A stretch of DNA of 64,000 bases from Patescibacteria group bacterium (GTDB lineage Bacteria > Patescibacteriota > Patescibacteriia > SG8-24): contig JBAYFM010000004.1 of NCBI GenBank assembly GCA_041667185.1, positions 9,097-73,096 of the forward strand, written 5' to 3'. Below the pieces are notes generated by a model that ran no database searches, was not told the DNA's origin, and saw only the letters and a program-made list of their open reading frames with translations. Positions 517 through 50,809 of the stretch are shown in pieces. The stretch's first letter is position 1. Every line of letters starts with the position of its first letter. A program made the position numbers and the translations under genes.

Positions 517-544
517 TAGGTGGGTTTATTGTACCTTATTTACG

Positions 545-2853: not shown

Positions 2854-2948
2854 TTCTTCAGCCCCAGCTGGAGCTGAAATTTCCTACCGGAGACTAAAAA
2901 ACCCGCTTCTTCAAGCGGGAGGGCAGCCTGATGACCCGAGGTCTGGAC

Positions 2949-3590: not shown

Positions 3591-3643
3591 ACCTTAATTT
3601 TACACGAAAAACCCGGCCAGCGCCACTCCAGGCACCGCTGGTC

Positions 3644-28277: not shown

Positions 28278-29453
28278 CTACTCAGCGACTTTCAGGCTAT
28301 TCACCACCATCTTGAAAGTGACCGCGTAATCAAGTTTATTCTGGCCTCCCAGATTATAACTCACGATGAATATGCGCTTGCCCGCAGCCACGAAGGCCGT
28401 CATCTTGTCCGGGCTCAGGATCTCCTCGTGACCGCCGAGAGTCTTAAGCAATTGAACCTCGGAACCCACGACGCCTGGCGATTGTTCCAGATACCAATCC
28501 AAGAGCGTCTTGTCCGTATCATTGGTTTCGACCAACACCTGGATGAACTCACCCTTGGGCGACGTGAAGTAGGTTTCCTTGCCATCTTCGCCTTTCTCGC
28601 TCACGACCCAGGAGGCCGGACGGAAGATCTCGTAACCCTGGACCGCGCTCTTGTAGACAGCGATCCCCGGATTATTCACGAGCAGGGCCGGGCGCGGCCG
28701 GGCCGGATCGAAAAGGTTGAGTACCTCGTTCAGATCAACGAAACTGTCGCCGTCGGAATCAGGATTGCTCATATCCGAGCCGTAGATGCCGGTCTCTTCC
28801 GCGTCGGTCACGCCGTCAAAATCAGAATCCGCTCCCGGAGTCGGTTCGGGAGGTTCGCAATCAGCGGCGCAGGTCTCGAGAGTCTCAGGTTCCTCGCATT
28901 TGTTGTCACCGCAGACCGGACCGGGCGGCACGCAATCAGCAGAACATGTTTCCACGGTCTCCGGCGCCTCGCATTTGTTGTCACCGCAGACCGGACCCGG
29001 GGACGGGCAGTCGGCCGGACAAACGGCGAAATTCTCGCCGCTTTCGCATCGGTTGTCGCCGCAGACCGGACCGGCCGGAATATTGGCGTTGGTATTGATC
29101 GCGGGCTGGACCGGACCCTTGGCCTTCTGTCCGGGCTGGTAGACCAGGAAATAATACGCAGCGCTGCCGCCGAGAGCTAGCAACAGGAAAATGACGATCA
29201 GGATGATCGGCAACGCGCTGCGTTTCTTGGGCTGCGGCGGTTTGGACGCTGGAGGATTAGCCGCTGCTGCCGGAGCCGGCACTGCCGGTTTCTTCGGCGG
29301 CTCGACCACTTTCTTCTTCAGAGCCGCGCCATAAAACTCATCCGGAATGACGTGGATGACGGTCTCGGAAGAGTTGGCGCCAGGCAAAGCCGCGGTGGGC
29401 GTGCCTGGCGGTTTCTCAAAACCCGGATTCGGAGCGATGTTCGGGGTGTCCAT
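28278..29453 (-). CDS. Membrane-anchored surface protein with three PVCGDNxCE...C.ADC repeats, TSP3 Ca-binding repeats and a C-terminal beta domain
   Basis: TM IILIVIFLLLALGG. Threefold PGPVCGDNKCE(x)PET(x)ETC(x)ADC repeat. DSDFDGVTDAEE and DSDGDSFVDLNE motifs. Confidence 0.6.
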   Translation of the reverse strand: MDTPNIAPNPGFEKPPGTPTAALPGANSSETVIHVIPDEFYGAALKKKVVEPPKKPAVPAPAAAANPPASKPPQPKKRSALPIILIVIFLLLALGGSAAYYFLVYQPGQKAKGPVQPAINTNANIPAGPVCGDNRCESGENFAVCPADCPSPGPVCGDNKCEAPETVETCSADCVPPGPVCGDNKCEEPETLETCAADCEPPEPTPGADSDFDGVTDAEETGIYGSDMSNPDSDGDSFVDLNEVLNLFDPARPRPALLVNNPGIAVYKSAVQGYEIFRPASWVVSEKGEDGKETYFTSPKGEFIQVLVETNDTDKTLLDWYLEQSPGVVGSEVQLLKTLGGHEEILSPDKMTAFVAAGKRIFIVSYNLGGQNKLDYAVTFKMVVNSLKVAE

Positions 29454-29465
29454 GGGAATAGCGGC

Positions 29466-30068
29466 TTAGGGCGTCGGCGGCAGACCGGGCAATTTTCCCG
29501 GCCCCAGCGGATTATAGCCAGCCTTGACCTCGGCGCCATCAAGATAACCGTCACCGTCGGTATCCGGCTTCTTCGGGTCGGTCTTGTATTGGCGCACTTC
29601 TTCAAAGTCGGTCAATCCGTCGTTGTCGGTGTCAACGGCCTGCGGGTCGGTCCCGAGCTGCGCCTCCTCCATATCGGACAACCCATCGCCGTCGGAGTCG
29701 ATCGGAGCGGTCTCTACGGCTGGCGGGACGATCGGCTCCTGCGGCTGCGGTTCGGGTGCTTGCGGCGCGGCCGGTTCGGGCTGGGGCTCTTGGGCCTCCG
29801 GTTGGGTCGGCTGGGCTTCCACATCGGTCGCCGCGGCCTGATCCGTTGGCGCCGCCGGAGCGGGCGCCTGGCTGCGATTCAAAAAGAAATACGCGCCGCC
29901 GCCGATCGCGGCCAGAACGATGACGCCGACAAGACCAAGCAGAAGCTTATTGGGTCCGGCCGAATACGCAGCCTGGGGCGCGGGAACGCCAGAACCAGCC
30001 GGCTGGACCGGCCTGGGCTTGTCCACTTCCGCGAAAATATCTACCGGTTCTTTGGCGTCGTCGAACAT
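29466..30068 (-). CDS. Membrane-anchored protein with TSP3 Ca-binding repeats
   Basis: TM LLLGLVGVIVLAAIGGGAYFF. Pro/Gln/Glu-rich linker. DSDGDGLSDMEE, DTDNDGLTDFEE, DTDGDGYLDGAE. Confidence 0.6.
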   Translation of the reverse strand: MFDDAKEPVDIFAEVDKPRPVQPAGSGVPAPQAAYSAGPNKLLLGLVGVIVLAAIGGGAYFFLNRSQAPAPAAPTDQAAATDVEAQPTQPEAQEPQPEPAAPQAPEPQPQEPIVPPAVETAPIDSDGDGLSDMEEAQLGTDPQAVDTDNDGLTDFEEVRQYKTDPKKPDTDGDGYLDGAEVKAGYNPLGPGKLPGLPPTP

Positions 30069-30257
30069 AAATTTATGTTATCTCAGCGAAAATACTACAA
30101 GCGATACCACAACCATTGTTTATTTCTTTGAGCTTATGATACAGCGGAATTCTTCTGTATTTATCATATCACATCTTTAGACCCGTTTCTATCACCCAAA
30201 ATCGTCGCTAAAACCAAAATCATCTTCCCCAGCCAGGGAGGACGATCTTTTGCGGAC

Positions 30258-30671
30258 TTATTTGCCTTTGACCAGCGGATCGCGGCCGGAACGATATTCT
30301 TCGCTGTCCGAAAGGCCGTCGCCGTCAGTATCGCTCTTGAGAGGGTTTGTCTTGAAGTTGTAATACTCGGCTCCGTCTCCAAGAGTGTCGCCGTCCGTGT
30401 CCCAATTATTCGGGTCAGTCCCGAGTTTGGCCTCTTCCGCAACCGTAAGACCGTCGCCGTCATCATCACCTGAAAGCGGCACTGGGACTGAAGGAGTATC
30501 CTGGCGCGGTTGTTGCTCACCCGCCTCAACACCTGATCCCGACTGCCCTACCGGCACTTGTGCCGCATCTTCCAGAACGGATCGAGATCTCAGATAGAAC
30601 GCCAGAGCGCCACCACCCAACAGGACGACCACGAAAACCGACACGATGATAATGATGAGTTTCCGGTTCAT
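30258..30671 (-). CDS. Membrane-anchored protein with TSP3 Ca-binding repeats
   Basis: TM LIIIIVSVFVVVLLGGGALAFYL. DDDGDGLTVAEE, DTDGDTLGDGAE, DTDGDGLSDSEE. Confidence 0.6.
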   Translation of the reverse strand: MNRKLIIIIVSVFVVVLLGGGALAFYLRSRSVLEDAAQVPVGQSGSGVEAGEQQPRQDTPSVPVPLSGDDDGDGLTVAEEAKLGTDPNNWDTDGDTLGDGAEYYNFKTNPLKSDTDGDGLSDSEEYRSGRDPLVKGK

Positions 30672-30683: not shown

Positions 30684-33600
30684 TTAAGGCGTGCTGGTCT
30701 GATAAACATTCTGCGGGGTCAACGTCGGCACTCCAGAGGTGGGTACGGTCATGTCGAAGATGTACCAGTTTCCCTTGGTATTACTCGTACTCACAGGAGC
30801 CGTGATCGAAGTCAGCTGATACGCGCCGTTGTGCCAGCTGATATACATCCGGGAATTGACTTGGGAGAAATAATCGTAGCCATTACCGCTGTAGTCATTC
30901 ACCCAGAATTTCCAGGTCCGCAGCACCGACCGATCATCATTCCACCGATATAACATTGTCTGCGGTGCGTAATCGAAAGTACCACAGGTGTTCCTGCCAT
31001 CTGGATGGTAGCAGGACAGGAAAGCGTTCGGATTAGTATTAGCCACGTCTTGATTGCCCGGACTGCCGTACGACACTGTCGCGCTGCCTGGATCAGGAAC
31101 CCAAAGATACGAATCAAGGAATCCGTTCAGGTCGCCATCCCAGATATATGCGGCCATGGCGTACCCGTAGGAAACCCGGGGCATCAGATAGAATTGCGGC
31201 GCCGACCAACTGTTCGCCGAACCGCTCGGAACGAACATCGAAGCTGCGTGATAACCGTTGACGTTGCGCTCCACGACCGCTCCAGAAAGGCCGGAAACGA
31301 CCAGATTATTGGCGGGCTTGAACGGCAGCACCTTGAGCCGGACGCGGCAGTGCGCCGGCGTGCCAGTGGTCTTGACCACGTCGGCCAGATTATAATTGCC
31401 GCTGGCATCGGTCTGGATCGCGATATTATTCGGCGAACGATCGACGCCGCAGACGCCGCCGAGTTTCTTGCCGTTGGCCCAGATGAAGATCCCTTCGGTC
31501 ACCTTGTCGTCGAGTCCGATCCAGCAATTGGCGCCGTTGCAGGCCGTCCGGACCTGTTCGTTCTTCGTCAGGTCGGCGATGGACGCGAGTCCGCCGTGAT
31601 TGGAGCAGGCCGACTTGGCGGAATCATAGTTCAAACCAGTGCCCGTGACCGTGAGGTCGTTGCAGACACCGCGGTCGGCCAATTGAGTGGACGAACAAGC
31701 CGCGTCGTTCCACGTGCCGTCAGGGTACATCTGCGCGCAATTCTCATTGCCATCAGGGGAGCCGGTCCAGTTATCCGGCTGCTGCGTCGCCCAGTTATTG
31801 AAGTTCAGGGTCGTATCGGCATTGCAGTCGGTGTCGCTGCCGCAAGTCGTGACGCGATCGTAGTTGCAGACCGCGGCCTGAGCCTCGACAGTCGCGCCGA
31901 CGATCGGAGTATTCACGAACATGGCGTCGCGCAGGTTTCCAGAAACAGCCATGCCTTCGCCAGGCCTGGTCCTGACCGTCCAGTTGTCATCGATCAGACT
32001 GTTGCAGTCATCGTCCTTGCCATTACATAGCTCTTTCGGATAGAAGACCAGGTCCATCGAGTTGGCTGGATTGCAATCGGCGACCTTGGCCAGCGTTGTC
32101 TTGGCGATATCCGGTCCGCCCCAGCAACCGGTGGACGGCGGCCAGGCCTGAATTTCGATCTCGCTGCCGGCGCAGGTCGTGATATTGAAAGAGATGTCGT
32201 AACTGCCATCGGCAGCCGTCATGACCTCCTTCAGATACGTAAGATTGCCGCCGTCCTTGCAATAGAGCTTGATCGGCGCATTGCCGACAACGCCCCTGCC
32301 GCCTTCAACCCTGAACACGCCCCTGATCTTCATCAGATTCTCATCAACCACGCCGTTGCAATTGTTGTCGCGGCCGTCGCAGACATCCTCGACACCCTCG
32401 GTCACCGAGAACGAACCGGTCTCGCCGGTGTCGCCGCTCTTCGTGTAGGTCAGGCTGAAATTCGGCCGCGAATCCCATTGGAGAGGTTCGCAATCCTTGG
32501 AGTTCGGCACGCCGTCGTTGTCGGCATCCGGATCGCAGGAATCCTTCAAGACGATCGGGTAGGACTGCGGCGGAGCGACGGGGTAGGGATTCGGGAACGG
32601 CCAGGAATTCGGCAGCTCCAACAAGTAGGCCTGCGGATTGAACAGGTTCCAGACGCCCTGCGGCGGCCGCACGTCACTATCTGTGTTGACCGTCGAGGAA
32701 TCGTTGCAGGCTTTGGATGACCGGTCGACGCAGGTCCGTTTGCAGGTCTTGGCGTCGCAGCTAGCCTGGCCGGTCTGGCGTCCGAAGACCTGGTCCTGCG
32801 GCCTGGTGCTGACGCAGATCCAGTTATTGATCCCGGTCTCGCCTTCGCACTCTTCCGGTCCGGGCGGATCATGCTCGAAATTCTCCAGGATGTTGTTGCC
32901 GCAGAAGCCGCCGGTGACGGTGCCGAGCTTGCAGGCCGACGTGCAGTAAGTGCAGTCCTGGCCATAGGCCGGACGGCAGCGCTGGCCGTTCAAAGCTCCC
33001 CCGTCGCACTGTTCGCCGCGCGCGGCGCTCACGAAACCGTCGCCGCAGACAGCGTTCTTGCAGTTGACGCAACCGTCGGCGGCATCGCTGTTGCCATCAT
33101 CACATTGTTCGCCGGTGTTCTTCACGCCATCACCGCAGCTGCCGGCTTCGGTGCAGCTCCAGTCGCCCCAGCGGCAGGCCAGCTGATCATCCTCCGTACC
33201 CGGCGCGTTGGCGTAGCAGGTGCGCCGCCAGCGCTTGTCATGATCGTTGGCATCGCAAAACTTGACGCAGGACCAATCCTGCCCGTTCGCGCCGAGGCCG
33301 CGGCAGTCGGCGTTGGTCGAACAGCCGGGCTGCGAAGACAGCTGCGTGCAGGTCGTCTGGTCCGCACCGGGCGGACAGCACAATTGCGGGTAATTCTGGA
33401 CTCCGCCGTCGCAGACCTCGCCAGAACCATTGATCTTGCTGTCGCCGCAGCGCGGACCCAGCTCTTTGCAATCCCAGGAACACGATGGCGCACCATTGAA
33501 ATTATATTGGCCGTTATCAGCGCCCAAATCACAGGCTTCGGAAGCCTGTTTCGCGCCGTCGCCGCAGCGCGGACCCAGACCGTTACAAGTCGAGTTGCAC

Positions 33601-36600
33601 TGGCCGTAAGTCCCGTTGAGCGGACCGTCATCGCAGAACTCGCCGGACTGTTTGATGCCGTCGCCGCAGGAGCCGACCGCGCACGCCCCCGGAGCCTGCC
33701 ATCTGCAATCCAAGCCGCAAGCTTTCCGCTGGACTCCCGGTCGCCCGCCGGATACGCAATCAATGATGGCCGGAGCCTGCCCTGGTTCGCACTCCTCCGG
33801 ATTGGCGCCGCCGATCTGCACCACGCCATCGCCGCAATAGCCCTGGGAGCCGATCTCCGTCATGGCTTGGCAGCGCGGGCCAAGATCGTAGTTCACGCCG
33901 CTCATGAGGAGCGCGCCGCCGCCCTGGGGCTGGCAGCCGGCTTCAGGAGACCAGGCGCACTCCGACTTGGCGACGCATTCGTTCTGCGTGGTGTTGTCGG
34001 GATCGCTGCCGTCGCGCACCTCGAAACAGGTCGAGCCAGCCCAGTACATCTTCGCGTTGGCGGCGCACTTGCCGCCGAACCAATTACAGAAACCGTCCTG
34101 CGCCAGACAGGTGTTCTGTTCGGCATAGGCCGTGCACAGATAATCCTGCCCGGTCTCGAAATCGGCGTAGAGACGGAAATCCTGGCCGCCGACGCTCTGG
34201 AACTCATAGACGTGCGACTCGGCCGGACAGCGATAGACCTTCTCCGCGGCATTCCAGCAAGTGGCGGGATCGAACTTGCGCTTGTCGGCGCAAACGCCGT
34301 TCTCGTAGACGCAGATCTCGGCGTGCTGATCGCAGGCGGCCTTGTTCGGATACTGCGAACAGTAACCGGAACACTGCATGAGCTTGTTGACCGGATCGGC
34401 CACGAGACCGAAACCGAGTTCGCTGGCGAGGACCGACGTCCACGAGCCCCAGCTGCTGATCGTGCGGCCGGGCAGGAAAGTCCCGGACTCGAGCTTGGGA
34501 TAGCCATCGCTCTTTTTGGCGACCAGCGCGTTCCGGAGCTGGACCAGATCGGTCCAGCGCTTCAAGTCGCGGATCAATTTATCCTTGTGAGCGCTGCAAT
34601 AGAGGCCGGCGCGCAGCGGGTCGAAGCCGCCGTTCTTGACGCGGCAATCGACGTCGGCCGAACACGGGATCGGCTTGCCATTGTCGAGCGCCTGCATCCC
34701 CTCCTGGGCGGCATCCACGCAGTAGCCTTTGTTACTGACGTTCAGATTGAAATTTATCTTGTTCAGGATCTGGTCGAAGATGGCCTGAGTCTCCGCCGCC
34801 GCCCCGTCGCTGTAAGACAGGATGTTGACGTTGGTGTACAACCGGCGCTGCTGCTCGGCGGCGATGTCAACCTTGGCCACTGCCAGGCTATAGACCGTCC
34901 GCCCCTCGCGCAAAGCCGGATAGCCATCCACCGTGGTCGCTGTCGGATTGCCGCTGAAGCCCTGTTTCTGGTACCAATCGCTGATGCTCAAATGATCCAG
35001 ATTGGACATGATGCGCAGACCGATGGCGTTCTTTTCCCAGGCTGTGGGCTTATCCGGGAAATTCGGGTCCAGCGGCCCCAAAGCGCGGTCGAACGTGAAC
35101 AGATACTCCCGCTGGATATCGCGGCCAGGCTGCAACGAGGCGTACTTGGACTCGTTCAGGGCCGGTAAGAAACCGACGGCCGGGGTGCGCGGAGCGCTGC
35201 TCGCGGCGCCAGCTTGAGCCAGGCGCCGGCTGGCGCTGCTCAGGGCCGAAGACGTCCGCGAAAGGACTTTAACGCCGCTTTCGTTCAGCGCCGGCAGATC
35301 ATCACCCTCGTCACCGCCCGCGGCGCCATCCCGACAATAATAGAAAGAAAGGTTCGTCGTGGGATCATAGAACGGGAACCACACCTGTTCGTCGCCGAGA
35401 CAGGACAAGCTCGCTCCCCTGGCGGCATCCCAGGGCAAACCATGAGCCTGAACGTCGGTGCATTTCCGCCAGGACGGCCAGGGATTCCGGCACAGCATGA
35501 CCGTGACCCTGGATTCGGCGCTGAGCGTCGAAGGCAGGCCCTGATCCAAGATCTCAGCGGCCACTCGGACCGACTGATCGCCATTGGCCGGGAACTTTTC
35601 GACCGGCGTCTTCCGGACCGAGACCCGGGCGGTTTCGGTTTCCTCCGGACGCGATCTGACGCAATCGGACGCCGCGGCGCAATTCTTGCAATCCGGACTA
35701 TTATCCGCCTCGCCGATCTCGCAGAAACCGTTTCCGACCGCGGGACCGACGACCGTCGGCGCGACCACGATCGGCGAATCGTCAGGCTGAACGTCCCAGA
35801 ACCATTTGAAACGATAATCCGGAGTGCTGTTCAGACTGGCCAGATCACCGCCGCGCGCCGGCTTGGCTTCGGCGACGAAATTCTGGTCGCCATCCAGCGA
35901 ATCCTCAGGATCAGGATATACGGCCGCGTTCGTGTCCTCGGCGGTCGTGAACAGGTGCGAGACCGGAGTCAGTACCACGGAATCGATCTTGCAGACAGCG
36001 CCAGCGGTCTTGAATTCCGACGGGCTCGAATCGTAAAGCGGCACGCCGCCCGCCGTCCGCAGCACCTCGCCGGCCGGACGCAAGCCGTCGGCGCCGCGCA
36101 AAAGTATCGTGTGCGTGACATTGGGCAGATAAGAACCGGCGGACATGAAGGTCACCAGCCGCGGCTTGACGACGAGGTCGCCGGGAACACGGCAATAACC
36201 GGCATCAGCAGCTCGAACCGGCGAGACAGCGCGTTCCAAGAGGTCGAAGAGGAAAGAGATCAACCGCGCCGGAGCCTGCCACCAGGCACTCGACCGGACC
36301 TCCGGCCGGAGAGACGTTTCGCCCCAGGGCCGCAGCTGTCCGTTGACCGGCTGCCGGTCGGCGCAGGTATCGCCTTCGCCGCAATCGGCGTCCGTCGAGC
36401 ACTGCTGGCCGGGTTTCTTGACGCAATATCTGACGGGCCGGCAGGAACCGCCGCAATCAGCGTTGGCGACGCAGGCAAGTCCGTTATTGGAACAGACGCT
36501 GGGCGCCTCCGCGGGCCGCGCAGCGCAAACGACGCCGAAAGAGCAGTCAGAATTGATCTGACAGCGCTCGCCGGTATCGGCGCAATATTTGGCCTGGATA

Positions 36601-39600
36601 CAGGAACCGCCGCAGCCGGCGTCGTTCGTGCAGGTCTTGCCTGGATCATTGCTGCAGACCGAACGGCACGCTCCGTCAACGGCCGGTTCGTAAACTCCCA
36701 CGTTGTCCCGAACGGAATTGATATCGACAGCTTCGCTGAAAGCGACTTTGACGGCCGTGTTGCGGCACACGTCTCCTTGTCCGGATAATGGGTAGACGAA
36801 CTCCGGCACGGGCGCCGGCGCGCAACAGCCGTTCGCGGAGCAGCCCAGCGGCGGCGGAGCCGGATCCTCTGTAGCCATCTCGCCCAGCGACCGGCAATAG
36901 GTCTGAGGCTCGCTCTGTTCCAGACAGGAGCAGGTCAGGCTGACCGTGGCTTTGCCGACGCGCGTCGAATCGGAACCGAATTCGGTCAAGCCGGCCAGGA
37001 CGTCATCCGACGGCCGAGCCACCGGCGGACCGGAGTAGACGCCGGCGCGGATGATCTGGAAAGGATCGATCCTGCCGTCGCCGCCGACCGGACCCGGATC
37101 GCAACCGGCCGCCTCGCCAGCGCCGACCACGCCATCGCGGCAGAACGACATTTCAGAATATTGCGCGGAAGCGCCTTCAAGCAGACAGGCTGCGGAACAG
37201 CCGTCTTGATTGGCCAGATTCCCGTCGTCGCACTGTTCGCCGGCCTCCACGATCCCGTTGCGGCAGCACCCCGTGCCGGTCGCTGCGGCGCAGGCTTTCG
37301 TGCCGGCGCGCAGACAAGTCTTCGGATCGCAACCGGCGGCCAGAATCGCATCGCTGGCGCCGGCCCCGCTGGCCGTATCACAGCCGATATCTTCGCCGGC
37401 TTCGGTCCGACCGTTGCCGCAATAATTGACGCAGGACGGCATGACTCCCTCGCTATCAGGCGCGACATCCAGACAAGATGGCAGGCTGCCCTCGCGCAAA
37501 CAATTATTGCTGCAGCCGTCGCCGTTCGCGCGATTGCCATCGTCGCAAGCCTCGCCGTCGGCCAGCTGACCGTCGCCACAGGACGACTTGCCGGCCGCAG
37601 CGCCGAGCATGACGCAGCCGACGGTCGAGCCGTTGGGTTCCTGGCAGCCGGTATCGAAGACGGCGCGGACGGCGGAACAACCCGCGTCGCCGAGTTTGCA
37701 GCCCGCCGGTTCGGTCTCGATGATCGCCTCGCAATTTTCGCCGTTTTCCAACTGACCGTTGCCGCAGCACTGCGCATCATCAAGCGCCCCGCATTTGAGC
37801 GTGCCCAAAACTACGCACCGGCTGGCGTCGCACCCGCGCGTCGCCGGACTACCGACGGCCGCATCGCAAGCCGGGTCTTCCCAAGGCAGGTCAACCACGC
37901 CGTTGCCGCACTGCGGCATCTTGTTCTGAGACCCCGTATGCCGGCAATCGGAAGTGCAGCCGGCCATCATCTCCATGTTCGTATCGAGACGGACATCAGG
38001 AGCCGCCGGCGGATCAATGGATCCGGAGTTCGTGTAAAAACCATCGATGACGTTCTTGTCAGTCTTAGTCCAAAGCCAACTGTAAGCACTCGCCCGCAGC
38101 TGCTGGCCAAGATCATCGCATTCGTCAGGTTTGGCAAAAGGCACCGCCTCGAAATCGGCGCGCTGGCCGACGTATTGCAGCAGCACCGCGCTCGGCCTGA
38201 CATCGGCATGATGGACGGCGCAAGGAGTGGGGCTGGTATTGGTCTTGAACTGCCAGGTGAAATAATCGCCGTCGTTAAGCTTCGAAAGCGGCACGCCGCT
38301 CCGACTCTTGATGAAACCGCTGCCGGCCGGCCGCTCGTCTTTTTTCGGATCCCAATATTGGCTCCGCAACCGGACGAGATAATTGGTGTTGCTCGCCAGG
38401 CCGGCCGAACCGATAGCGAATTCGAAGCGCCGGCCGCTCAGCTGACCGACCGAATCCACGACCTTGTTCACGGTCACGGTCTCATGGAAATATGGCGGCT
38501 GGCAGCTGATGTTGCGGCATTTGAGGACTTCGACATTGCCCGAAAAACTGGCTTCATCCATCGCGACGTTGAATTGCGCCCAGATCGCGGCGTTGCTGCA
38601 GGCGCTGCCGCAATCGGGAGCGTGAGCCGTCACCTGCGGATCAGCGAATTTGACGCTCACTTCGGCCTGGCCGGAGGTCTGCTGGCCGCCGCCCGGCGGC
38701 GCGAACGCGGCCGCGAGACCGACCGGATCCTCGGTCTCCGCCTTCGCGCGCACGGCCTGATAACACTGATGCTTGTCGGGCTGCAGGGACAGGATGTTCT
38801 CATCGGAGCTCCAGTTGATCTGGTAGATGCCCGGAGCGCACCGGAGGCGATTGCAGCTGATGTCGACCGGGAGGGCGGCGAAGCCGGCCGGATTCGCCGG
38901 CGCCGGAGCCTGGTTCGGAGCCGCCGGCGGCAGCCATTCCGGATTATCGACCTCGTCGCGATCGATCAGATATTTGAAAGGATTGACGATGACCTCGGAA
39001 AGCACGCAAGGAGCATCGGTTGCGGCGGTCTTGAATTCCAGAACGTAGTCGCCGCCCTGGTTGAGATCGTAATCACCGTCGAGATCAACGCCGTAGATAT
39101 CCTTGATGCCGTTCTCGGAATCGCCGGACAAAGTGACCCGGTACCAGGTCTTCTTGGCCAGCAAAGCCCCGGCACCCTTGGGCGCGGCGACCAGGGACCT
39201 CGACCCCGGCGGCTGGGGCGGCAGGTTGGAATTCTCAAAGGTCACGTCGAACTGGCTGGTCACGTTGACCGCGGCAGCGCAGGCCGGAGCGATGCCATCG
39301 CCGCAGGTCTCGATCCGGTATTTCCCGGCGAAGGAATCGACCCGCATGAAATTATTGAAAGCCAGCTGGATGACCGTGCCAGTGCAGATATCCTGGGAGC
39401 CGGCGGACGGCGCCGGACTCTTGAAATCAACGGCGTATTTGGCCTGGCAGGTCTGTTCATGGCAAGCGCAGCGCAGGACCTGCGGCATCTCCGGCAGCAC
39501 TTCGGTGCTGAACCGCCAACCGTAGGCACTGGTCGGCTTGGGAGCTTCGCAGGCAGCCTTGGTCGCCCGGCAGGAACCGTTGGGGCAGCAGACCGGCTTA

Positions 39601-42323
39601 TCCGGCTGGTCCTTTTGGCACAGATTGTCGCCGCCGATCTTGGTGCAATCCTGGACCTTGAACGGTACGGCGTTCGAACTCCACTGGTTGTTGGCTTCGA
39701 CGTAAACAGGACCAGTCTCCGCCTCCGGGGTCGCGGGATCAGGACGGGCGGCTGGCACGTAAGCCGAGACCTCCCGGTTCGACCAGGAAACGCCGGCATA
39801 AGCCCGGACCGCCGTGTTGGCCAAAAGGTTATTCTTTGAAAAATTGATGGAGTATTCGGTCAGACCGCTCTTGGTGCCGAAACGCTCGCCCAAGATCTTG
39901 ACCTTGGTGGTGCCGGCCGGACCGTTATCCGGCTCGATGCTGCAGATGCCCGGCTTCGACGGATCGGAATTGATGGTGAACAGGATCGCTTTGCTCTCCT
40001 TGCCATCGCCGGAGCGCTGGACCGACAGGTCATACTGCTCCAACCGAACCGGGCAAGTACCCTTGTCCGAGCACTCGAAAGCCGTCGGGACTTTGACCAC
40101 GATGTAGTTGCTGGTCCAGGTCGCTTTGCAGGGCGGAGCGGGCGGAACGCCGATGGCGACATCGCTGGCGTTGGATTTGGATACGAAACGCACCACGCCG
40201 CTCGAACCGAAGCCGCGGCCTACTATAGTAATATAGGCATCAACCGGACCGGCTGGCGGCAACACCTCGGTGATGGCCGGGGCTTCCGCTTTGTCGCCGG
40301 CGGAAACCAGGAAGATCGGATCATTCGTTGTCCACACGCCGGCAGCCTCGTTTCCGATCCTGACTCGGACAGGATACGGCCCGTCCTTGAGGGTCGGCGT
40401 AATGGCGGTGATCTTGTCGCCGGTCGACGCCCAGCCCTGGCTCGCGACGTTGGCCGCGCTGGTGCTGAGGAAAACCTGGCTCTCCCCCATTTCCCCGCCG
40501 AAATTGACGCCGCTGATGTCGAATCGAGTGCCGATCGGGCCGAAATTCGGTTTGACGAAACAAATGCCCGGCTGCGGCGGCAAAGCGGTGTCAACATCGA
40601 AAGTTCCGACCCAGCCGCGATCATTAGCGGTCGTATCCGCGAGTCCGGACAACGTCCTGATCTCGATGGGGCCGTCTTTGGCGTTCGCCGGAACCTTGAC
40701 CGTGGCCTGGTTGGGTTCGACGCCGTTGGTCCACGAATCTTCGGGCGCGGCGCACAGATCGGCGACCGCGTCGTCATTCGGATCATTCACGTCGCCAAGG
40801 AAAATGACGCGTCCGGCCGGCGGTCCGAACATCTTGCCGGAGACCGTCACGAGCGTCCCGGGAGCGCCGGCCGCCGGAGAGACCGACTCGATCATGGGCA
40901 GATCGACGCATTTGCCGGCGACACAGGCGCCGGAAGCGCAATCAGCATCGCCGGTGCAAACCGCACCGCTGCAACGGCCGCAAGCCGAGGCTGCGCCGCA
41001 ATCCACCCCATCCTCATCCGCGTCCTTGGCGCCATTGCAGCAATGCGTCGGCAGGACCTTGAAATTAGAAACGACCGGGGCGCTGGCGTTGCCGACGACG
41101 TCCTCGGCGGACGCGGCTGCGCCGTAAAGTGATCCGGCCGCCAACTTGGCCAGGTCAATCTGCACGGTGTCGATTGAAAAAGGATTCGCGAGCGCGGCGT
41201 TCATCTTCACGGTCTCGCCGATGATGGCGTCCGCCACCGGAGCGCCGGGAGCGCCGTCCTCGCCGACGGCCACGATCCCGAAAGTCAGGCTGACGGCAAG
41301 CTGGTTATCCTGGGCGATAGCCTGAATGTTCAGGGGCGCACTGCAGATTCCTGGCGGCGACTTCGGCATCGTCACGCGGACGTTCGGCGGCTCGAAATCA
41401 ACCCAATCGCCGATCGCGACGGCGCGGCGGCAAAGCGTCCGGGCTTGCGCGGTCGTATCCTCCGGCTTGGCTCCGGGCGCCGCGCGGCAATCGAGCGGCT
41501 TGGCGTCCGGCGTTTTCAGGACATTGGTCTCAAAACCGGTCGCGCCGCCGTCAGCTTCGATGAGATACCAGACATCGCCCTTGAAACATGGCTGCCCGTT
41601 ATCGCACTTCGAGTCCGGAACGAACTCGATGGTCTTGCCGACCACGGTCGAGGTCCCGGCATAAGCTTCGGTCTTGGGCTTGCAAGCGGCGATATCGAAC
41701 GGAAGACTCTCGGCGCCGTCGCCCGCGCCCTGGATCCGCGGATTGCACTCCAAGACGCGGAAATGGCCGGTGACGCTCGCTGCGTCAATGCCATCATTGA
41801 AAGACATTTTGAGTTTGGAATTCTTGGACCAGCCGCGCTGATCATTCGGACCAGCCGGGGCCACGCCCTGAACCCTAAAAGTGGCGCCGCCGCCGAAGCC
41901 GTTGCCGCCGCCAGCGCCGCCCCCGCCGCCATCTCCCCCGCCGCCGACCTCGCCGCCCGCGGCGCCGATGATGAAACGCGCGATGGCGAAAGCCGACATG
42001 ATGATCACGAGGCCGATGGCCGCGCTGACCATGGTCTTCTTCGCTTTGGAGATCTGTTCCTCATTGCCCTGGGAGGTCATCCAAAGGAAGCCGGCGTAGA
42101 GGATCAGGCCGACGGCGATGATCCCGAGAAAACCCAGGAAGTAGCTGATGATGCGGGCAACGGTCGTGCGGACATCGGTCGTCGTGAGACCGATCGCGGT
42201 CGCGTAATCCAACCCCAGATCAACCTGGGCGGAGACGGCGCGCGCCGACAACAAAACGGCGAAACCGGCGATGGCGGCCAATCCGGACCTGAAGATGTTG
42301 TTTTTAGCGGTGCGCATAACCAT
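30684..42323 (-). CDS. Giant (3879 aa) secreted cell-surface protein. N-terminal module is signal peptide plus two TM helices (TrbC/VirB2-pilin-like topology). Passenger is adhesin-like: Gly-rich linker, Myxococcus-type Cys-rich repeats, MopE-like CxxDNNCNG motifs, a TSP3 motif, a C-type-lectin-like WND motif and an aromatic-rich C-terminus.
   Basis: Single uninterrupted ORF. N-terminus ...AVSAQVDLGLDYATAIGLTTTDVRTT...LILYAGFLWMTSQGNEEQISKAKK...IGLVIIMSAFAI. Repeats such as CGDGQLADGEACDDGNRANGDGCSNNC, CRNGIVEAGEQCDDGNLANQDGCSAAC and CGDGVKNTGEQCDDGNSDAADGC. CDGRDNNCNGVVDE and CNGKDDDCNSLIDD. DPDADNDGVPNSKDCEP. QPDNW...NENCAQMYPDGTWNDAAC...GVCN. Confidence 0.8.
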   Translation of the reverse strand: MVMRTAKNNIFRSGLAAIAGFAVLLSARAVSAQVDLGLDYATAIGLTTTDVRTTVARIISYFLGFLGIIAVGLILYAGFLWMTSQGNEEQISKAKKTMVSAAIGLVIIMSAFAIARFIIGAAGGEVGGGGDGGGGGAGGGNGFGGGATFRVQGVAPAGPNDQRGWSKNSKLKMSFNDGIDAASVTGHFRVLECNPRIQGAGDGAESLPFDIAACKPKTEAYAGTSTVVGKTIEFVPDSKCDNGQPCFKGDVWYLIEADGGATGFETNVLKTPDAKPLDCRAAPGAKPEDTTAQARTLCRRAVAIGDWVDFEPPNVRVTMPKSPPGICSAPLNIQAIAQDNQLAVSLTFGIVAVGEDGAPGAPVADAIIGETVKMNAALANPFSIDTVQIDLAKLAAGSLYGAAASAEDVVGNASAPVVSNFKVLPTHCCNGAKDADEDGVDCGAASACGRCSGAVCTGDADCASGACVAGKCVDLPMIESVSPAAGAPGTLVTVSGKMFGPPAGRVIFLGDVNDPNDDAVADLCAAPEDSWTNGVEPNQATVKVPANAKDGPIEIRTLSGLADTTANDRGWVGTFDVDTALPPQPGICFVKPNFGPIGTRFDISGVNFGGEMGESQVFLSTSAANVASQGWASTGDKITAITPTLKDGPYPVRVRIGNEAAGVWTTNDPIFLVSAGDKAEAPAITEVLPPAGPVDAYITIVGRGFGSSGVVRFVSKSNASDVAIGVPPAPPCKATWTSNYIVVKVPTAFECSDKGTCPVRLEQYDLSVQRSGDGKESKAILFTINSDPSKPGICSIEPDNGPAGTTKVKILGERFGTKSGLTEYSINFSKNNLLANTAVRAYAGVSWSNREVSAYVPAARPDPATPEAETGPVYVEANNQWSSNAVPFKVQDCTKIGGDNLCQKDQPDKPVCCPNGSCRATKAACEAPKPTSAYGWRFSTEVLPEMPQVLRCACHEQTCQAKYAVDFKSPAPSAGSQDICTGTVIQLAFNNFMRVDSFAGKYRIETCGDGIAPACAAAVNVTSQFDVTFENSNLPPQPPGSRSLVAAPKGAGALLAKKTWYRVTLSGDSENGIKDIYGVDLDGDYDLNQGGDYVLEFKTAATDAPCVLSEVIVNPFKYLIDRDEVDNPEWLPPAAPNQAPAPANPAGFAALPVDISCNRLRCAPGIYQINWSSDENILSLQPDKHQCYQAVRAKAETEDPVGLAAAFAPPGGGQQTSGQAEVSVKFADPQVTAHAPDCGSACSNAAIWAQFNVAMDEASFSGNVEVLKCRNISCQPPYFHETVTVNKVVDSVGQLSGRRFEFAIGSAGLASNTNYLVRLRSQYWDPKKDERPAGSGFIKSRSGVPLSKLNDGDYFTWQFKTNTSPTPCAVHHADVRPSAVLLQYVGQRADFEAVPFAKPDECDDLGQQLRASAYSWLWTKTDKNVIDGFYTNSGSIDPPAAPDVRLDTNMEMMAGCTSDCRHTGSQNKMPQCGNGVVDLPWEDPACDAAVGSPATRGCDASRCVVLGTLKCGALDDAQCCGNGQLENGENCEAIIETEPAGCKLGDAGCSAVRAVFDTGCQEPNGSTVGCVMLGAAAGKSSCGDGQLADGEACDDGNRANGDGCSNNCLREGSLPSCLDVAPDSEGVMPSCVNYCGNGRTEAGEDIGCDTASGAGASDAILAAGCDPKTCLRAGTKACAAATGTGCCRNGIVEAGEQCDDGNLANQDGCSAACLLEGASAQYSEMSFCRDGVVGAGEAAGCDPGPVGGDGRIDPFQIIRAGVYSGPPVARPSDDVLAGLTEFGSDSTRVGKATVSLTCSCLEQSEPQTYCRSLGEMATEDPAPPPLGCSANGCCAPAPVPEFVYPLSGQGDVCRNTAVKVAFSEAVDINSVRDNVGVYEPAVDGACRSVCSNDPGKTCTNDAGCGGSCIQAKYCADTGERCQINSDCSFGVVCAARPAEAPSVCSNNGLACVANADCGGSCRPVRYCVKKPGQQCSTDADCGEGDTCADRQPVNGQLRPWGETSLRPEVRSSAWWQAPARLISFLFDLLERAVSPVRAADAGYCRVPGDLVVKPRLVTFMSAGSYLPNVTHTILLRGADGLRPAGEVLRTAGGVPLYDSSPSEFKTAGAVCKIDSVVLTPVSHLFTTAEDTNAAVYPDPEDSLDGDQNFVAEAKPARGGDLASLNSTPDYRFKWFWDVQPDDSPIVVAPTVVGPAVGNGFCEIGEADNSPDCKNCAAASDCVRSRPEETETARVSVRKTPVEKFPANGDQSVRVAAEILDQGLPSTLSAESRVTVMLCRNPWPSWRKCTDVQAHGLPWDAARGASLSCLGDEQVWFPFYDPTTNLSFYYCRDGAAGGDEGDDLPALNESGVKVLSRTSSALSSASRRLAQAGAASSAPRTPAVGFLPALNESKYASLQPGRDIQREYLFTFDRALGPLDPNFPDKPTAWEKNAIGLRIMSNLDHLSISDWYQKQGFSGNPTATTVDGYPALREGRTVYSLAVAKVDIAAEQQRRLYTNVNILSYSDGAAAETQAIFDQILNKINFNLNVSNKGYCVDAAQEGMQALDNGKPIPCSADVDCRVKNGGFDPLRAGLYCSAHKDKLIRDLKRWTDLVQLRNALVAKKSDGYPKLESGTFLPGRTISSWGSWTSVLASELGFGLVADPVNKLMQCSGYCSQYPNKAACDQHAEICVYENGVCADKRKFDPATCWNAAEKVYRCPAESHVYEFQSVGGQDFRLYADFETGQDYLCTAYAEQNTCLAQDGFCNWFGGKCAANAKMYWAGSTCFEVRDGSDPDNTTQNECVAKSECAWSPEAGCQPQGGGALLMSGVNYDLGPRCQAMTEIGSQGYCGDGVVQIGGANPEECEPGQAPAIIDCVSGGRPGVQRKACGLDCRWQAPGACAVGSCGDGIKQSGEFCDDGPLNGTYGQCNSTCNGLGPRCGDGAKQASEACDLGADNGQYNFNGAPSCSWDCKELGPRCGDSKINGSGEVCDGGVQNYPQLCCPPGADQTTCTQLSSQPGCSTNADCRGLGANGQDWSCVKFCDANDHDKRWRRTCYANAPGTEDDQLACRWGDWSCTEAGSCGDGVKNTGEQCDDGNSDAADGCVNCKNAVCGDGFVSAARGEQCDGGALNGQRCRPAYGQDCTYCTSACKLGTVTGGFCGNNILENFEHDPPGPEECEGETGINNWICVSTRPQDQVFGRQTGQASCDAKTCKRTCVDRSSKACNDSSTVNTDSDVRPPQGVWNLFNPQAYLLELPNSWPFPNPYPVAPPQSYPIVLKDSCDPDADNDGVPNSKDCEPLQWDSRPNFSLTYTKSGDTGETGSFSVTEGVEDVCDGRDNNCNGVVDENLMKIRGVFRVEGGRGVVGNAPIKLYCKDGGNLTYLKEVMTAADGSYDISFNITTCAGSEIEIQAWPPSTGCWGGPDIAKTTLAKVADCNPANSMDLVFYPKELCNGKDDDCNSLIDDNWTVRTRPGEGMAVSGNLRDAMFVNTPIVGATVEAQAAVCNYDRVTTCGSDTDCNADTTLNFNNWATQQPDNWTGSPDGNENCAQMYPDGTWNDAACSSTQLADRGVCNDLTVTGTGLNYDSAKSACSNHGGLASIADLTKNEQVRTACNGANCWIGLDDKVTEGIFIWANGKKLGGVCGVDRSPNNIAIQTDASGNYNLADVVKTTGTPAHCRVRLKVLPFKPANNLVVSGLSGAVVERNVNGYHAASMFVPSGSANSWSAPQFYLMPRVSYGYAMAAYIWDGDLNGFLDSYLWVPDPGSATVSYGSPGNQDVANTNPNAFLSCYHPDGRNTCGTFDYAPQTMLYRWNDDRSVLRTWKFWVNDYSGNGYDYFSQVNSRMYISWHNGAYQLTSITAPVSTSNTKGNWYIFDMTVPTSGVPTLTPQNVYQTSTP

Positions 42324-42338: not shown

Positions 42339-44522
42339 TTAAGGAGTGCGGGTCGGTCCCAGCTGGCAGTCGAACACTTCCTGGGGATTGCCGTCGCAGC
42401 ACGAAGTGGCGCCAGCCGTGAGCTCGCAAGCGAAGCCCTGGCTCGGAAAGAAACAGTTCTGGAACGCGTCCTTGACCTGCGCTTTGACGACCGGCTGGTA
42501 GAGCGGCAGTTTCTCGGTGACAGTGTCCGTTTCCTCGTTCCAGTTCAGATCATTCAGACGGAAGAACCGCTCGTGTCCCAGATCAGTGACGGTGTGCTCC
42601 GTCGGACCCGCGCCCTGGATCGCGTTGCCGATGATGACGGCTGGCGGATCGATCGGCCTGGCGCAGGTCGAGATGTCCATCTCGCTCGTGCAGTCGGCGG
42701 TGCCGGTCTTCAGCCAGAGTCGGGCGTCATAGAACATCGTCGTGCCGCCGCGCATGGAAGCCGACATCATCGGTTTATTCCAGGCCAGCGTGACCGGAGC
42801 ATCAACAGGCACTGACGACGGATCAGCCGGAGTGATGCCGGCGATCCGCGGCGGATCGAGATCGACCGCGCCGCCGATGCGATAATTGGCGACGGCCGTG
42901 TCGCTGTAAGCTCCGTAGTTCGACGGATCATTGCCCGGCGGAAAGACGTTCCAATTGAAAGCCTCGCGGCTGCCGGAGACTGGGCCCTCGGCCTTGCCGC
43001 TGCGATTGCCGTCGAGGGAATTACCGCTCATATCAGTGACACCATCGGTCGGATCAGCGGCTCCGGGCGGCACCGAACCGACCGTGGCCGCGCGGACCTG
43101 GAACGTGACGTTGGCGTTGGCCGGCAGGCAGAAAACGGACTCGCCGCAGGAATTCGTCACCTTGCCGCCGTCGCAGGGAGCGCTCGGAATGAACTCGACC
43201 GTGCGGTAGCGGTTGCTGATGTCCATCAAACCCTCAATCGAGGTGCAGGTGCCGCCGGTGCAGTCCTTGAGATCGATGAAATTGAAACCTCCGGATCCGG
43301 TCTTGCCGCGCGCGGTCGTCGGATCGAGCGGCTCGTTGAAATACGCGGCCACGACGCGATTCCGGGCCAGAGGATAGATGTTGAACGGACTGGTCGGTCC
43401 CGGCGAAAAATATTCGAGCTTGGGCGGCTCCAGGTCGAAGGTCGTGCTCGTCGTGAAGACCCAGAAATATCCGCCGTCGTTGCCCATGGTGTTGAAGGCC
43501 GGCTTCTGGATCGGAGCGGTTCCCGTCGGTGGCGGCACCCAAGCCTTGATCCCGGCGTCGCCGCCGCGGAGCGCCACGCGATAATCGACCGGTTCGTCAT
43601 TGCTGCCGATGCCGGCCGGCCCGAACCTGAGGACGATGGTCTGGTTATTATCGGCGTTATAAGGCTCATCGACCGCCGTGCGCGTCACGGTCGGCGCGGG
43701 GCTGACGAGCTTGGCGGCCGGATACCGCTGCTCGAAACGATCGGCGACCGAGGCCGCTGTCGGCTCGCCCAGGTCACCCACCTCGATGATCTTGATATTA
43801 TCGGTATTGAGCGTGAGGATGGTCTGCGGCGTGACAGGCGTCTCGATATGGCCTTCGCTAGCGCAGTCCGGCGCACAGACGACGTCATCAGCGACGGCAA
43901 AAGTATTGTTGTCCTTGTAATTCTTGAAAATGGTCGAAAGCACGACCGGCTTCTTGAAAGTGATCGCCACCTTGGTGTTCCGCGGCACGTTGGTCTGGCC
44001 CGCTTCCGGATAGTGGTATTCGATGCCGTAGCCGCGCTGGTTGGGGCCGCAATTGACGCGGCAGCCGCGCGAGAAAAAACTGCCGTCGCCGGAATCGCCG
44101 AGCGGACCAGTGAGCGTGTTGCCGGTCACGGCCCGGAAAATGAACGCCGTGATGGCGTAGGCCGACATGATGATCGCGAGACCGATGGTAGCGTTGATCA
44201 GGATCTTCTTGGCCTGCGTGATCTTCTCCTCGCTCCCCTGCGAGGTCATCCACAAAACGCCGGCGTACAGGATGATGAGCACCGCGGCCACGCCGAGAAA
44301 TGCGAAAAACGCTTTGATGATGTTGCCGATGGTCGTCCGGATATCGGTCGTGCCGAGGCCGATGGCGGTGGCATAATTCAAACCGAGATCGACGCCGCTC
44401 TGAGCGAACGCGACAAGCGGCAAACCGATGGCGGCCAAGATAACGCCAATGACCGCGACGGTGATCGCGGTCTTAGCTGGCGCCGCACTGGCGCCGTTCC
44501 GACGATTTATCCTTCCAAGCAT
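42339..44522 (-). CDS. 727-aa secreted protein sharing the N-terminal pilin-like module of the giant protein; beta-rich passenger
   Basis: ...AFAQSGVDLGLNYATAIGLGTTDIRTT...LIILYAGVLWMTSQGSEEKITQAKK...IGLAIIMSAYAI aligns position-by-position with the N-terminus of the 3879-aa protein. Stop is 15 nt from the giant gene's start. Confidence 0.7.
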   Translation of the reverse strand: MLGRINRRNGASAAPAKTAITVAVIGVILAAIGLPLVAFAQSGVDLGLNYATAIGLGTTDIRTTIGNIIKAFFAFLGVAAVLIILYAGVLWMTSQGSEEKITQAKKILINATIGLAIIMSAYAITAFIFRAVTGNTLTGPLGDSGDGSFFSRGCRVNCGPNQRGYGIEYHYPEAGQTNVPRNTKVAITFKKPVVLSTIFKNYKDNNTFAVADDVVCAPDCASEGHIETPVTPQTILTLNTDNIKIIEVGDLGEPTAASVADRFEQRYPAAKLVSPAPTVTRTAVDEPYNADNNQTIVLRFGPAGIGSNDEPVDYRVALRGGDAGIKAWVPPPTGTAPIQKPAFNTMGNDGGYFWVFTTSTTFDLEPPKLEYFSPGPTSPFNIYPLARNRVVAAYFNEPLDPTTARGKTGSGGFNFIDLKDCTGGTCTSIEGLMDISNRYRTVEFIPSAPCDGGKVTNSCGESVFCLPANANVTFQVRAATVGSVPPGAADPTDGVTDMSGNSLDGNRSGKAEGPVSGSREAFNWNVFPPGNDPSNYGAYSDTAVANYRIGGAVDLDPPRIAGITPADPSSVPVDAPVTLAWNKPMMSASMRGGTTMFYDARLWLKTGTADCTSEMDISTCARPIDPPAVIIGNAIQGAGPTEHTVTDLGHERFFRLNDLNWNEETDTVTEKLPLYQPVVKAQVKDAFQNCFFPSQGFACELTAGATSCCDGNPQEVFDCQLGPTRTP

Positions 44523-49399: not shown

Positions 49400-49447
49400 T
49401 ACGAGGCGTTGCGCCTTAACCCCAAGCTTATGGACACCAGACTGAAG

Positions 49448-50794: not shown

Positions 50795-50809
50795 GATCCG
50801 CATCCGACT

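Follow-up and report, generated by a model that had tools for sequence, protein, structure and literature searches.

How do the ultrasmall cells of the Patescibacteria (Candidate Phyla Radiation, CPR) find and hold their hosts? This is largely unknown, and the locus described here is a concrete candidate for part of the answer. The DNA analyzed is a stretch of 64,000 nucleotides from a Patescibacteria metagenome-assembled genome (MAG; GenBank assembly GCA_041667185.1, contig JBAYFM010000004.1, positions 9,097 to 73,096 of the forward strand), referred to below as the window. A single open reading frame (ORF) of 3879 codons on its minus strand (30684-42323) encodes a protein that we call the giant. 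The original prediction had described it as a passenger-type adhesin with C-type lectin signatures in an unusual order, Myxococcus-type cysteine-rich repeats, MopE-like motifs, and a TSP3 motif. As set out below, the lectin signatures belong to a single domain that is predicted to be circularly permuted, and the protein begins with a pilin-like membrane anchor. With moderate confidence, we favor the reading that it is a giant adhesin anchored by its pilin-like domain, whose permuted lectin head is specific to its lineage and would bind sugar.

At least three public assemblies encode the identical protein, among them entries at NCBI (MFA6603612.1, [quoted passage not shown] on a 99.5-kb contig), JGI (21.8-kb contig of metagenome 3300037810), and ENA (80.4-kb contig). 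An assembly frameshift, which had been raised as a way in which the ORF might be split in the true genome, is therefore unlikely.

A lectin domain with its halves exchanged

The lectin motifs lie at window positions 31512-31796 and include NWATQQPDNW (from residue 3510), WNDAAC (from residue 3538), and WIGL (from residue 3601). Like every other motif quoted in the original prediction, they were found where it had placed them. When residues 3480-3660 are scanned alone, Lectin_C (PF00059) matches in two stretches and scores 38.9 bits (cut-off 22.6; E 1.6e-9); on residues 3420-3879, it scores 31.6 bits. The stretch that comes later in the protein corresponds to profile positions 3-63, that is, to the first part of the profile. 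As a side observation, standard annotation misses the lectin, given that the NCBI name refers to IPT/TIG and the precomputed Pfam list lacks Lectin_C; it becomes visible only in a segment scan.

The order of the pieces can be read from a phmmer search of PDB sequences with the lectin segment as query (query residues 27-69 are residues 3506-3548 of the giant). Query residues 27-69 (LNFNNW…QPDNW…NENC…WNDAAC) align with residues 110-151 of SP-D and with residues 104-147 of MBP-A(QPDWG), and query residues 72-142 (…AKSAC…CWIGLDD…TEGIFIWANGKKL) with residues 36-110 of SP-D. The two SP-D matches join at the same chain residue and sum to exactly one domain. Identity to solved C-type lectin carbohydrate-recognition domains (CRDs) is 23-42% in the aligned stretches.

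The first part of the unit contains QPDNW (residues 3515-3519), NENC (3526-3529), WND (3538-3540), and cysteines 3529, 3543, and 3554. The second part holds β1, α1 (with Cys 3573), α2, CWIGLDD (3600-3606), and TEG. The RGVCN/β5 stretch up to residue 3555 was assigned by eye, and, as we read the sequence, only one or two residues are left for the turn from β5 (RGVCN) to β1 (LTVTG).

All four canonical cysteines are kept: C3573 (C1), C3529 (C2), C3543 (C3), and C3554 (C4). The first three were placed via the SP-D/MBP-A alignment, and C4, which lies just beyond the alignments, was set from the canonical F-[IV]-C-E pattern. The unit thus has both the WIGL motif and the four cysteines of a C-type lectin-like domain (CTLD). 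The sequence likewise retains all five ligands of Ca2+ site 2 (Q3515, D3517, E3527, N3539, and D3540), so that the sequence alignment shows each element of that site: the QPD or EPN motif, here in the form QPD-x-W, the glutamate, and the Asn-Asp of WND. We take E193 and N205-D206 of MBP-A(QPDWG) to be the counterparts of E3527 and N3539-D3540. The QPD-x-W form goes with galactose-type specificity.

What departs from the family is the order of the elements. The canonical succession is β1-α1-α2-β2-long loop-β3-β4-β5, and here it is long loop-β3-β4-β5-β1-α1-α2-β2. Judged from sequence, then, residues 3506-3621 are one circularly permuted CTLD, of the expected type of fold but not of the family's topology, in which the cut falls exactly at the canonical β2/long-loop junction and the old termini are rejoined. 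The original prediction had left it between tandem and permuted CTLDs. The lectin family match and the permutation both hold, and tandem domains are rejected, as the giant contains exactly one C-terminal half and one N-terminal half. A lectin diversified by a diversity-generating retroelement was also considered and rejected, because no template/variable repeat was found; within 28-46 kb, no near-identical repeat touches 31.4-31.9 kb, and the window was not searched exhaustively for a reverse transcriptase.

The galactose-type CRDs (asialoglycoprotein receptor; MBP-A QPDWG, PDB 1AFA/1BCH/1BCJ; SP-D) are the top matches of this domain in both sequence and fold, and are like it in WIGL, the four cysteines, the QPD…E…WND ligands, and the Trp after QPD-x. 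Unlike in these, the C-terminal ~50 residues stand ahead of the N-terminal ~66, the β5-β1 turn has only 1-2 residues, and the new termini lie at the β2/long-loop junction. In addition, the domain is inserted in another domain, in a bacterial (CPR) host.

Predicted fold

AlphaFold2 (AF2), given an alignment of 79 natural sequences, predicts the unit with a mean predicted local distance difference test score (pLDDT) of 82.3 and a predicted TM-score (pTM) of 0.75, with 99 residues at pLDDT ≥90. The order of secondary structure in the model is β3, β4, β5, α1, α2, β2. All 50 Foldseek matches listed from the PDB are C-type lectin CRDs, galactose-binding mutants of MBP-A included; two of them, 1AFA and 1BCH, are structures of the galactose specificity switch. 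The model suggests that both halves would fold into one domain.

The lectin interrupts a probable β-sandwich

Comparison with a metagenomic homolog (L154) places the lectin inside another domain. With the giant's sequence intact, the BLASTP alignment to this homolog starts only near residue 3710. When residues 3485-3633 are removed, a single BLASTP high-scoring segment pair runs from residue 3459 to 3879 (E 4e-19). Removing the insert in silico also gives a match to CarboxypepD_reg (PF13620) that crosses the splice, at 23.4 bits against a cut-off of 32.3; in the homologs L154 and L130, where the domain is uninterrupted, the same profile reaches 28.3 and 24.1 bits against that cut-off. Free-gap pairwise alignment was too noisy for mapping the insertion, and splice-and-BLAST was clearer. 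By this comparison, the lectin is an insertion of ~150 residues in a loop of the putative β-sandwich. The cysteine-rich flank on its N-terminal side, with three Cys, might serve as a disulfide clamp.

The third-codon-position GC content (GC3) of the insertion (0.80) is compositionally ordinary for the gene (0.76 ± 0.05), and a recent foreign origin of the insert was rejected because its value matches that of the gene. As a separate observation, the lowest GC3 of the gene (0.61-0.68) is found in its C-terminal part (residues 3634-3879; window 30687-31424, minus strand).

In the head, a β-sandwich follows each of two MopE-type motifs, and the insertion lies in the second of these sandwiches. Motifs of this type are present more than by chance, as two heads occur in the giant and none in 3000 shuffles (never both together). 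Profile support for the family is borderline: Cu-binding_MopE (PF11617) gives 27.1-27.8 bits in segments and 25.4 bits on the full-length protein, against a cut-off of 27. The TSP3 assignment fared less well. There is one copy of an Asp-rich, TSP3-like motif, whose core D.D.D.DG turns up in 1.3% of shuffles, and neither TSP_3 (PF02412) nor TSP3_bac (PF18884) matched the giant in any scan, at E values up to 10. True TSP3_bac repeats are encoded in two small genes downstream.

The C-terminus is aromatic rich and Cys poor, as had been noted from the letters: the last 180 residues have 14-17 W+Y+F and 0-2 Cys per 100 residues. The C-terminal ~250 residues have no hydrophobic segment and gave no Pfam, PDB, or word-index match. 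From its recurrence in homologs, this aromatic-rich part is a conserved domain of the family.

Origin of the permuted unit

Where could such a unit have come from? A profile of the lectin unit, searched exhaustively against 1.84 billion representative proteins, returned 1049 hits. The top 150 of these are mostly canonical tandem CTLD arrays, in which the colinear matches cross the boundary between domains. Spacing at the N-to-C junction of canonical arrays hardly varies (median gap -5, interquartile range -5 to -4), and their C-to-N linkers are 17 residues long in the median. The giant's halves abut without a linker, as the C-half match ends 1-2 residues from the N-half match, and there is neither an N-half upstream nor a C-half downstream of the unit. 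Scores of the unit are 52-64 bits for stretches of Cys-containing canonical arrays that cross a domain boundary, versus 24-33 bits for Cys-less permuted repeats from Planctomycetota.

These Planctomycetota repeats occur in giant proteins as CTLD-like units with the C-half first and the N-half second (P0005, P0013, P0067, P0076, P0151). Some are isolated and others form arrays in which a C-half comes first and an N-half last; named examples are MDG2221885.1 (Rubripirellula sp. “lectin-like protein”) and MEY3176317.1. They resemble the giant's unit in the C-then-N order and the short junction, and several keep EPN/WND-type motifs, but they lack cysteines and have EPN rather than QPD. They look like a separate family of permuted CTLDs. 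The permuted topology would then have arisen more than once, and the permutation in the giant is probably independent of that in Planctomycetota because its unit is closer to canonical Cys-containing arrays than to the Planctomycetota repeats.

The unit could plausibly have come from canonical CTLDs in tandem, by loss of both outer halves. Circular permutants classically arise in this way, through a duplication that is then trimmed at both ends, and the scores against arrays fit such a route. The permuted lectin may then have been gained as a lineage-specific head within a conserved family of pilin-anchored giants with variable heads (see below). Two side observations concern canonical relatives. 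The closest include tandem CTLD arrays of the alga Heterosigma akashiwo (P0015, P0184), and a canonical Cys-containing EPN/WND CTLD is encoded in a Candidatus Saccharibacteria MAG (P0159, “lectin-like protein”), so canonical CTLDs do occur in the phylum.

No description of a circularly permuted CTLD was found in the literature searched, which is weak evidence given that most subscription journals were outside its coverage, nor was any description found there of the Planctomycetota repeats as permuted. If the reading is true, this would be the first described natural circular permutant of a functional CTLD, as far as that literature shows. It would provide a natural test of how well a CTLD tolerates permutation at the β2/long-loop junction, and would illustrate the trimming of a tandem array as a plausible route to a permutant. 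More generally, permuted domains within giant proteins are probably reported too rarely.

Membrane anchor and stalk

The N-terminus of the giant matches the T4SS pilin profile PF18895 with 34.7-37.7 bits (cut-off 26.6) and NF045849 with 41 bits (cut-off 40), whereas TrbC (PF04956) stays below threshold (16.9-21.3 vs. 27.9). Hydropathy analysis shows three hydrophobic segments there (residues 14-32, 53-84, and 96-124). The profile match, signal peptide, and two-helix hairpin of a type IV secretion system (T4SS) pilin are thus all present. What does not agree with such a pilin is size and setting, as it should be a small polymerizing subunit encoded with VirB4 and VirB6, and the giant has 3879 residues and none of the window ORFs scanned encodes VirB4, VirB6, or a T4SS ATPase or channel. 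From the known topology of VirB2, the ~3750 residues after the hairpin presumably lie outside the cell. We infer that the hairpin anchors the giant in the cytoplasmic membrane and that the remainder is extracellular. The pilin domain may act as an anchor only, or it may let the protein join a T4SS pilus.

VirB2-like pilins and pilin arrays of Patescibacteria (PMC12102498; PMC10633639) have the same PF18895 domain, with signal peptide and two helices, and occur as tandem divergent pilin-domain genes in the same phylum. A survey of T4SS in Patescibacteria handles VirB2 homologs as small proteins (PMC12102498). The giant is unlike these in having ~3750 residues, predicted to be extracellular, after its pilin domain. 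Its upstream paralog, which NCBI names “pilin,” has 727 residues in total.

“Passenger” is therefore the wrong term for the giant, as a type V (autotransporter) passenger goes with a C-terminal β-barrel and an outer membrane, and the host phylum is described as monoderm (PMC12857230). Profile scans of the full-length protein and of its segments found no β-barrel, translocator, or autotransporter domain.

Between the anchor and the head lie Ig-like domains and cysteine-rich repeats. In addition to the Big_5 domain listed in Table 1, there are Big_5 stretches at residues 1228-1321 (weak) and 1838-1877. TIGR02232 (myxo_disulf_rpt) matches in four stretches with 67.5 bits against a cut-off of 20.8, and each of two clusters matches DUF4215 (PF13948) at 34-35 bits (cut-off 27), so both families are above cut-off in repeated copies. 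A regular expression for the repeat heads finds 11, versus 0.012 in shuffles; one example is CGDGQLADGEACDDG at residue 1582 (window 37536-37580). The Myxococcus-type assignment is thus borne out, except that the “many copies” of the full repeat come down to about four canonical and about seven degenerate ones.

The middle part of the giant includes a stretch of ~780 residues (residues ~1900-2680; 34284-36626, minus strand) without any Pfam match. Within it, residues ~1900-2000 are dense in Cys and contain repeated C…D.DCGGSC-like motifs, and about residues 2150-2680 are alignable in metagenomic homologs.

Among known giant adhesins, SiiE (PMC6272769) and a 7651-aa adhesin of Mobiluncus (PMC10619420) are comparable in having thousands of residues, Ig-like domains with repeats stabilized by Ca2+ or cross-links, and distal ligand modules. 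Unlike those proteins, which rely on type I secretion system retention or LPXTG, the giant has a pilin-like hairpin, a TIGR02232/DUF4215 stalk, and a permuted lectin head. Cysteine-rich/MopE surface proteins of Myxococcota have TIGR02232/DUF4215 and, at a borderline score, PF11617 in common with it, in another phylum. The parts are known, and their combination appears to be undescribed in the literature searched.

A family of giants with different heads

A metagenome scan with an alignment of the pilin domain found 203 relatives, of which 80 loci were kept. In these 80, the pilin-domain ORFs are 107-178 aa, 542-920 aa, or 1738 to over 3479 aa in length. About 20 metagenomic giants are colinear with residues ~10-3330 of the giant. 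As in the window, a pilin-domain gene (613-839 aa) lies directly upstream of the giant gene in all 11 loci checked (L079, L080, L082, L090, L118, L121, L125, L128, L130, L149, and L154), making a two-gene cassette. Small ORFs with TSP3 motifs are found downstream of the giant in four homologous loci, and the two small TSP3-repeat proteins of the window may be partners of the giant.

The heads differ from locus to locus. The head of L128 contains Malectin (68.6 bits; L128:12359-14158, plus strand), those of L090, L079, and L118 have weak VWA matches in their C-terminal 600 aa, and in those of L130 and L154 the CarboxypepD_reg-like domain is uninterrupted and precedes a C-terminal domain with homology to residues 3711-3864. 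These differences suggest that heads are swapped within the family, and by the same comparison the permuted lectin is predicted to be a lineage-specific addition.

Searches with the head itself returned little. Word-index searches with the CTLD segment and with the C-terminal 255 aa gave nothing and did not return even the giant itself, and a metagenome scan with the CTLD plus the C-terminus gave no match. In a tblastn search of genome contigs with the head, only the MopE-motif/β-sandwich region (residues ~3260-3510) was matched, at 25-39%, in 76 loci that are nearly all from Myxococcota or from unclassified “Deltaproteobacteria” MAGs. None of these 76 shares the CTLD or the C-terminal domain, as the matches stop at query residue ~300 of 640.

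Function and alternative readings

If the parts work together, the signal peptide and the VirB2/T4SS-pilin-like hairpin would hold the N-terminus in the cytoplasmic membrane. The glycine-rich linker would lead into a long stalk of Big_5, IPT/TIG, and disulfide-rich TIGR02232/DUF4215 repeats, and the head (residues ~3260-3879) would thereby be held well off the cell. There, the lectin would bind galactose- or N-acetylgalactosamine-type glycans on the surface of a host or partner, in a Ca2+-dependent manner, and so mediate attachment. The adhesin part of the original prediction fits this setting, with its membrane anchor, its Ig-like and disulfide-rich stalk, its distal lectin, and Malectin in the equivalent place of one homolog. 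In the one genetically tractable species, a cultured Patescibacterium, epibiotic growth requires both pilins and envelope proteins that have glycan-binding domains (PMC10633639). The glycan-binding role proposed here fits both those envelope proteins and the homolog's Malectin head. The wider interest is in a family of pilin-anchored giants with interchangeable distal binding modules, of which this one would have galactose-type (QPD) specificity.

A bolder version is possible, and we offer it tentatively: the cassette would be a host-recognition device, with a stalk of >3000 residues that is either pilin anchored or loaded onto a T4SS pilus and with heads swapped between lineages, the head here being a permuted CTLD of the Ca2+/galactose type.

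Several points weigh against a working sugar-binding adhesin with a permuted lectin head. Lectin_C was not reported in the full-length hmmscan of the giant. With a shallow alignment of five sequences (natural permuted units), AF2 gives a pLDDT of 37. The deeper alignment consists mostly of stretches that span tandem arrays, whose repeats are alike, so covariation within canonical domains may favor the fold. Foldseek aligns half a domain per match (36-76 columns, TM-score about 0.3, E 0.1-0.6), and the packing of the halves as a CTLD is therefore unproven; the disulfides (expected as C3529-C3543 and C3554-C3573), the packing, and the Ca2+ site are all predicted. The CTLD halves are absent from all ~20 homologous giants, as are the MopE motifs. 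No CTLD-bearing ortholog was found in the genome-contig, metagenome, or family scans, which gives no sign that the CTLD is conserved under selection. A QPD motif is no guarantee of galactose binding, given that many CTLDs bind proteins or other ligands. Finally, expression and surface location of the giant are predictions.

These points bear on the alternatives to different degrees. The permuted CTLD could fold and yet have a ligand that is not a sugar (protein, mineral or ice, or lipid), or the giant could be mainly structural, as a fiber or matrix of the envelope. It is established that many CTLDs bind no sugar, the stalk has many Ca2+-binding and disulfide modules, and the small neighboring genes encode TSP3 Ca2+-binding repeats. 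It is moreover the C-terminal domain, not the lectin, that is conserved among homologs, so the core function of the family may lie elsewhere. However, the EPN/QPD, E, and WND ligands have usually been lost from CTLDs that do not bind sugar, and all of them are kept here; the closest solved matches include galactose-engineered MBP-A; and a homolog carries a different carbohydrate-binding module, Malectin, in its head. We consider a non-sugar or structural role less likely than sugar binding, but possible.

The lectin-like stretches could also be decayed remnants of a tandem array, unfolded and a mere spacer in the head. No ortholog keeps the lectin unit, the full-length Pfam scan misses it, and the best colinear matches span domain boundaries in tandem arrays, so an array is the likely ancestor. 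Decay is hard to reconcile with two pieces that have complementary breakpoints and add up to exactly one domain, or with pLDDT values of 90-97 over most of the unit (pTM 0.75). The reading frame has no frameshift or stop, and GC3 (0.80) is as in the rest of the gene. The Cys-less permuted units of Planctomycetota, which are independent, indicate that the topology is viable. Since no core or ligand residue has been lost (four canonical Cys, WIGL, and five Ca2+-site residues with QPD-x-W), we regard a remnant as improbable.

The weakest alternative, an autotransporter-type passenger adhesin with tandem CTLDs and TSP3 repeats, would suit a long, repetitive, Cys- and Asp-rich protein with lectin signatures in an odd order, but it was rejected, being contradicted by the missing barrel or translocator domain, a C-terminus without Pfam match or hydrophobic segment, the T4SS-pilin hairpin at the N-terminus, the single C-half and N-half, the lack of any TSP_3/TSP3_bac match, and a host phylum that is described as monoderm (PMC12857230). 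The pilin-anchored adhesin with a permuted lectin head remains the reading that we prefer.

Features of the locus and its neighborhood

The coordinates of the features are collected in Table 1. The other neighbors in the window are ordinary chromosomal genes, encoding FtsZ, FtsA, pyruvate kinase, phosphoenolpyruvate synthase, HisRS, signal peptidase, TopA, DprA, RelA/SpoT, and ParAB.

Table 1. Features of the giant gene and its immediate neighbors, in order of transcription (window positions; residues of the 3879-aa protein)
Feature	Residues	Window positions	Strand	Basis
Upstream paralog, 727 aa: signal peptide and T4SS_pilin N-terminus as in the giant, plus Big_5		42339..44522	-	Profile matches, repeat D1, hydropathy
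Giant ORF, 3879 aa	1-3879	30684..42323	-	Public gene calls begin at M3, giving 3877 aa
Signal-peptide-like hydrophobic N-terminus (…ARAVSA/Q)	1-32	42228..42323	-	Hydropathy segment at residues 14-32; cleavage predicted from sequence
T4SS_pilin/VirB2-like two-helix membrane hairpin	51-118	41970..42173	-	PF18895 and NF045849 profile matches
Glycine-rich linker	123-146	41886..41957	-	Direct sequence reading
IPT/TIG Ig-like domains, four stretches	Best at 590-661 and 793-889	39657..40556	-	PF01833, 67.5 bits; tiled scans
Big_5 Ig-like domain	965-1086	39066..39431	-	PF13205, 50.3 bits, three stretches
Cysteine-rich acidic repeat cluster 1	1472-1715	37179..37910	-	TIGR02232, best stretch 1580-1612; DUF4215, 34.4 bits, two stretches
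Cysteine-rich acidic repeat cluster 2	2830-3160	32844..33836	-	DUF4215, 34.7 bits, four stretches; seven regular-expression heads
Single TSP3-like Asp-rich motif, DPDADNDGVPNSKDCEP	3264-3280	32484..32534	-	Sequence; no profile match
MopE-type motif 1, CDGRDNNCNGVVDE	3315-3328	32340..32381	-	PF11617
MopE-type motif 2, CNGKDDDCNSLIDD	3433-3446	31986..32027	-	Regular expression; probably the second PF11617 stretch of the segment scan
Host β-sandwich (CarboxypepD_reg-like), N-terminal part	3455-3483	31875..31961	-	PF13620 match with insert removed; colinearity with L154
Cys-rich N-terminal flank of insertion, three Cys	3484-3505	31809..31874	-	Sequence; low pLDDT
Permuted CTLD, first part, as canonical C-terminal half (long loop, β3-β5)	3506-3555	31659..31808	-	phmmer vs. 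PDB; pLDDT 81-96
Permuted CTLD, second part, as canonical N-terminal half	3556-3621	31461..31658	-	SP-D 36-110; Lectin_C positions 3-63; pLDDT 90-97
C-terminal flank of insertion (GGVCGVDRSPNN)	3622-3633	31425..31460	-	Sequence; boundary via comparison with L154
Host β-sandwich, C-terminal part (IAIQTDASGNY…)	3634-3700	31224..31424	-	Splice comparison with L154
Aromatic-rich C-terminal domain	3711-3879	30687..31193	-	Common to L130, L126, and L154; BLASTP E 3e-20 to 3e-18
Two small downstream ORFs (30258-30671, 137 aa; 29466-30068, 200 aa)		29466..30671	-	PF18884 TSP3_bac, 52.6 and 82.7 bits

Other observations in the window

The string of genes that includes the giant ends with a membrane-anchored protein of 391 aa (28278-29453, minus strand). 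Three tandem repeats of 75 nt (28842-29066) encode PVCGDNKCExPE..C.ADC in this protein and are followed by Asp-rich, TSP3-like loops; it has no NCBIfam match. Farther along the window, a 913-aa ORF (48437-51178, minus strand) without Pfam or NCBIfam match overlaps a well-supported LytR_cpsA_psr gene (47963-49399, plus strand) by about 960 nt; part of this ORF is probably a spurious reading frame in high-GC DNA. Lastly, an 1148-aa ORF (60533-63979, minus strand) contains 11 DUF5122 β-propeller repeats (405.9 bits) and its product is possibly extracellular.

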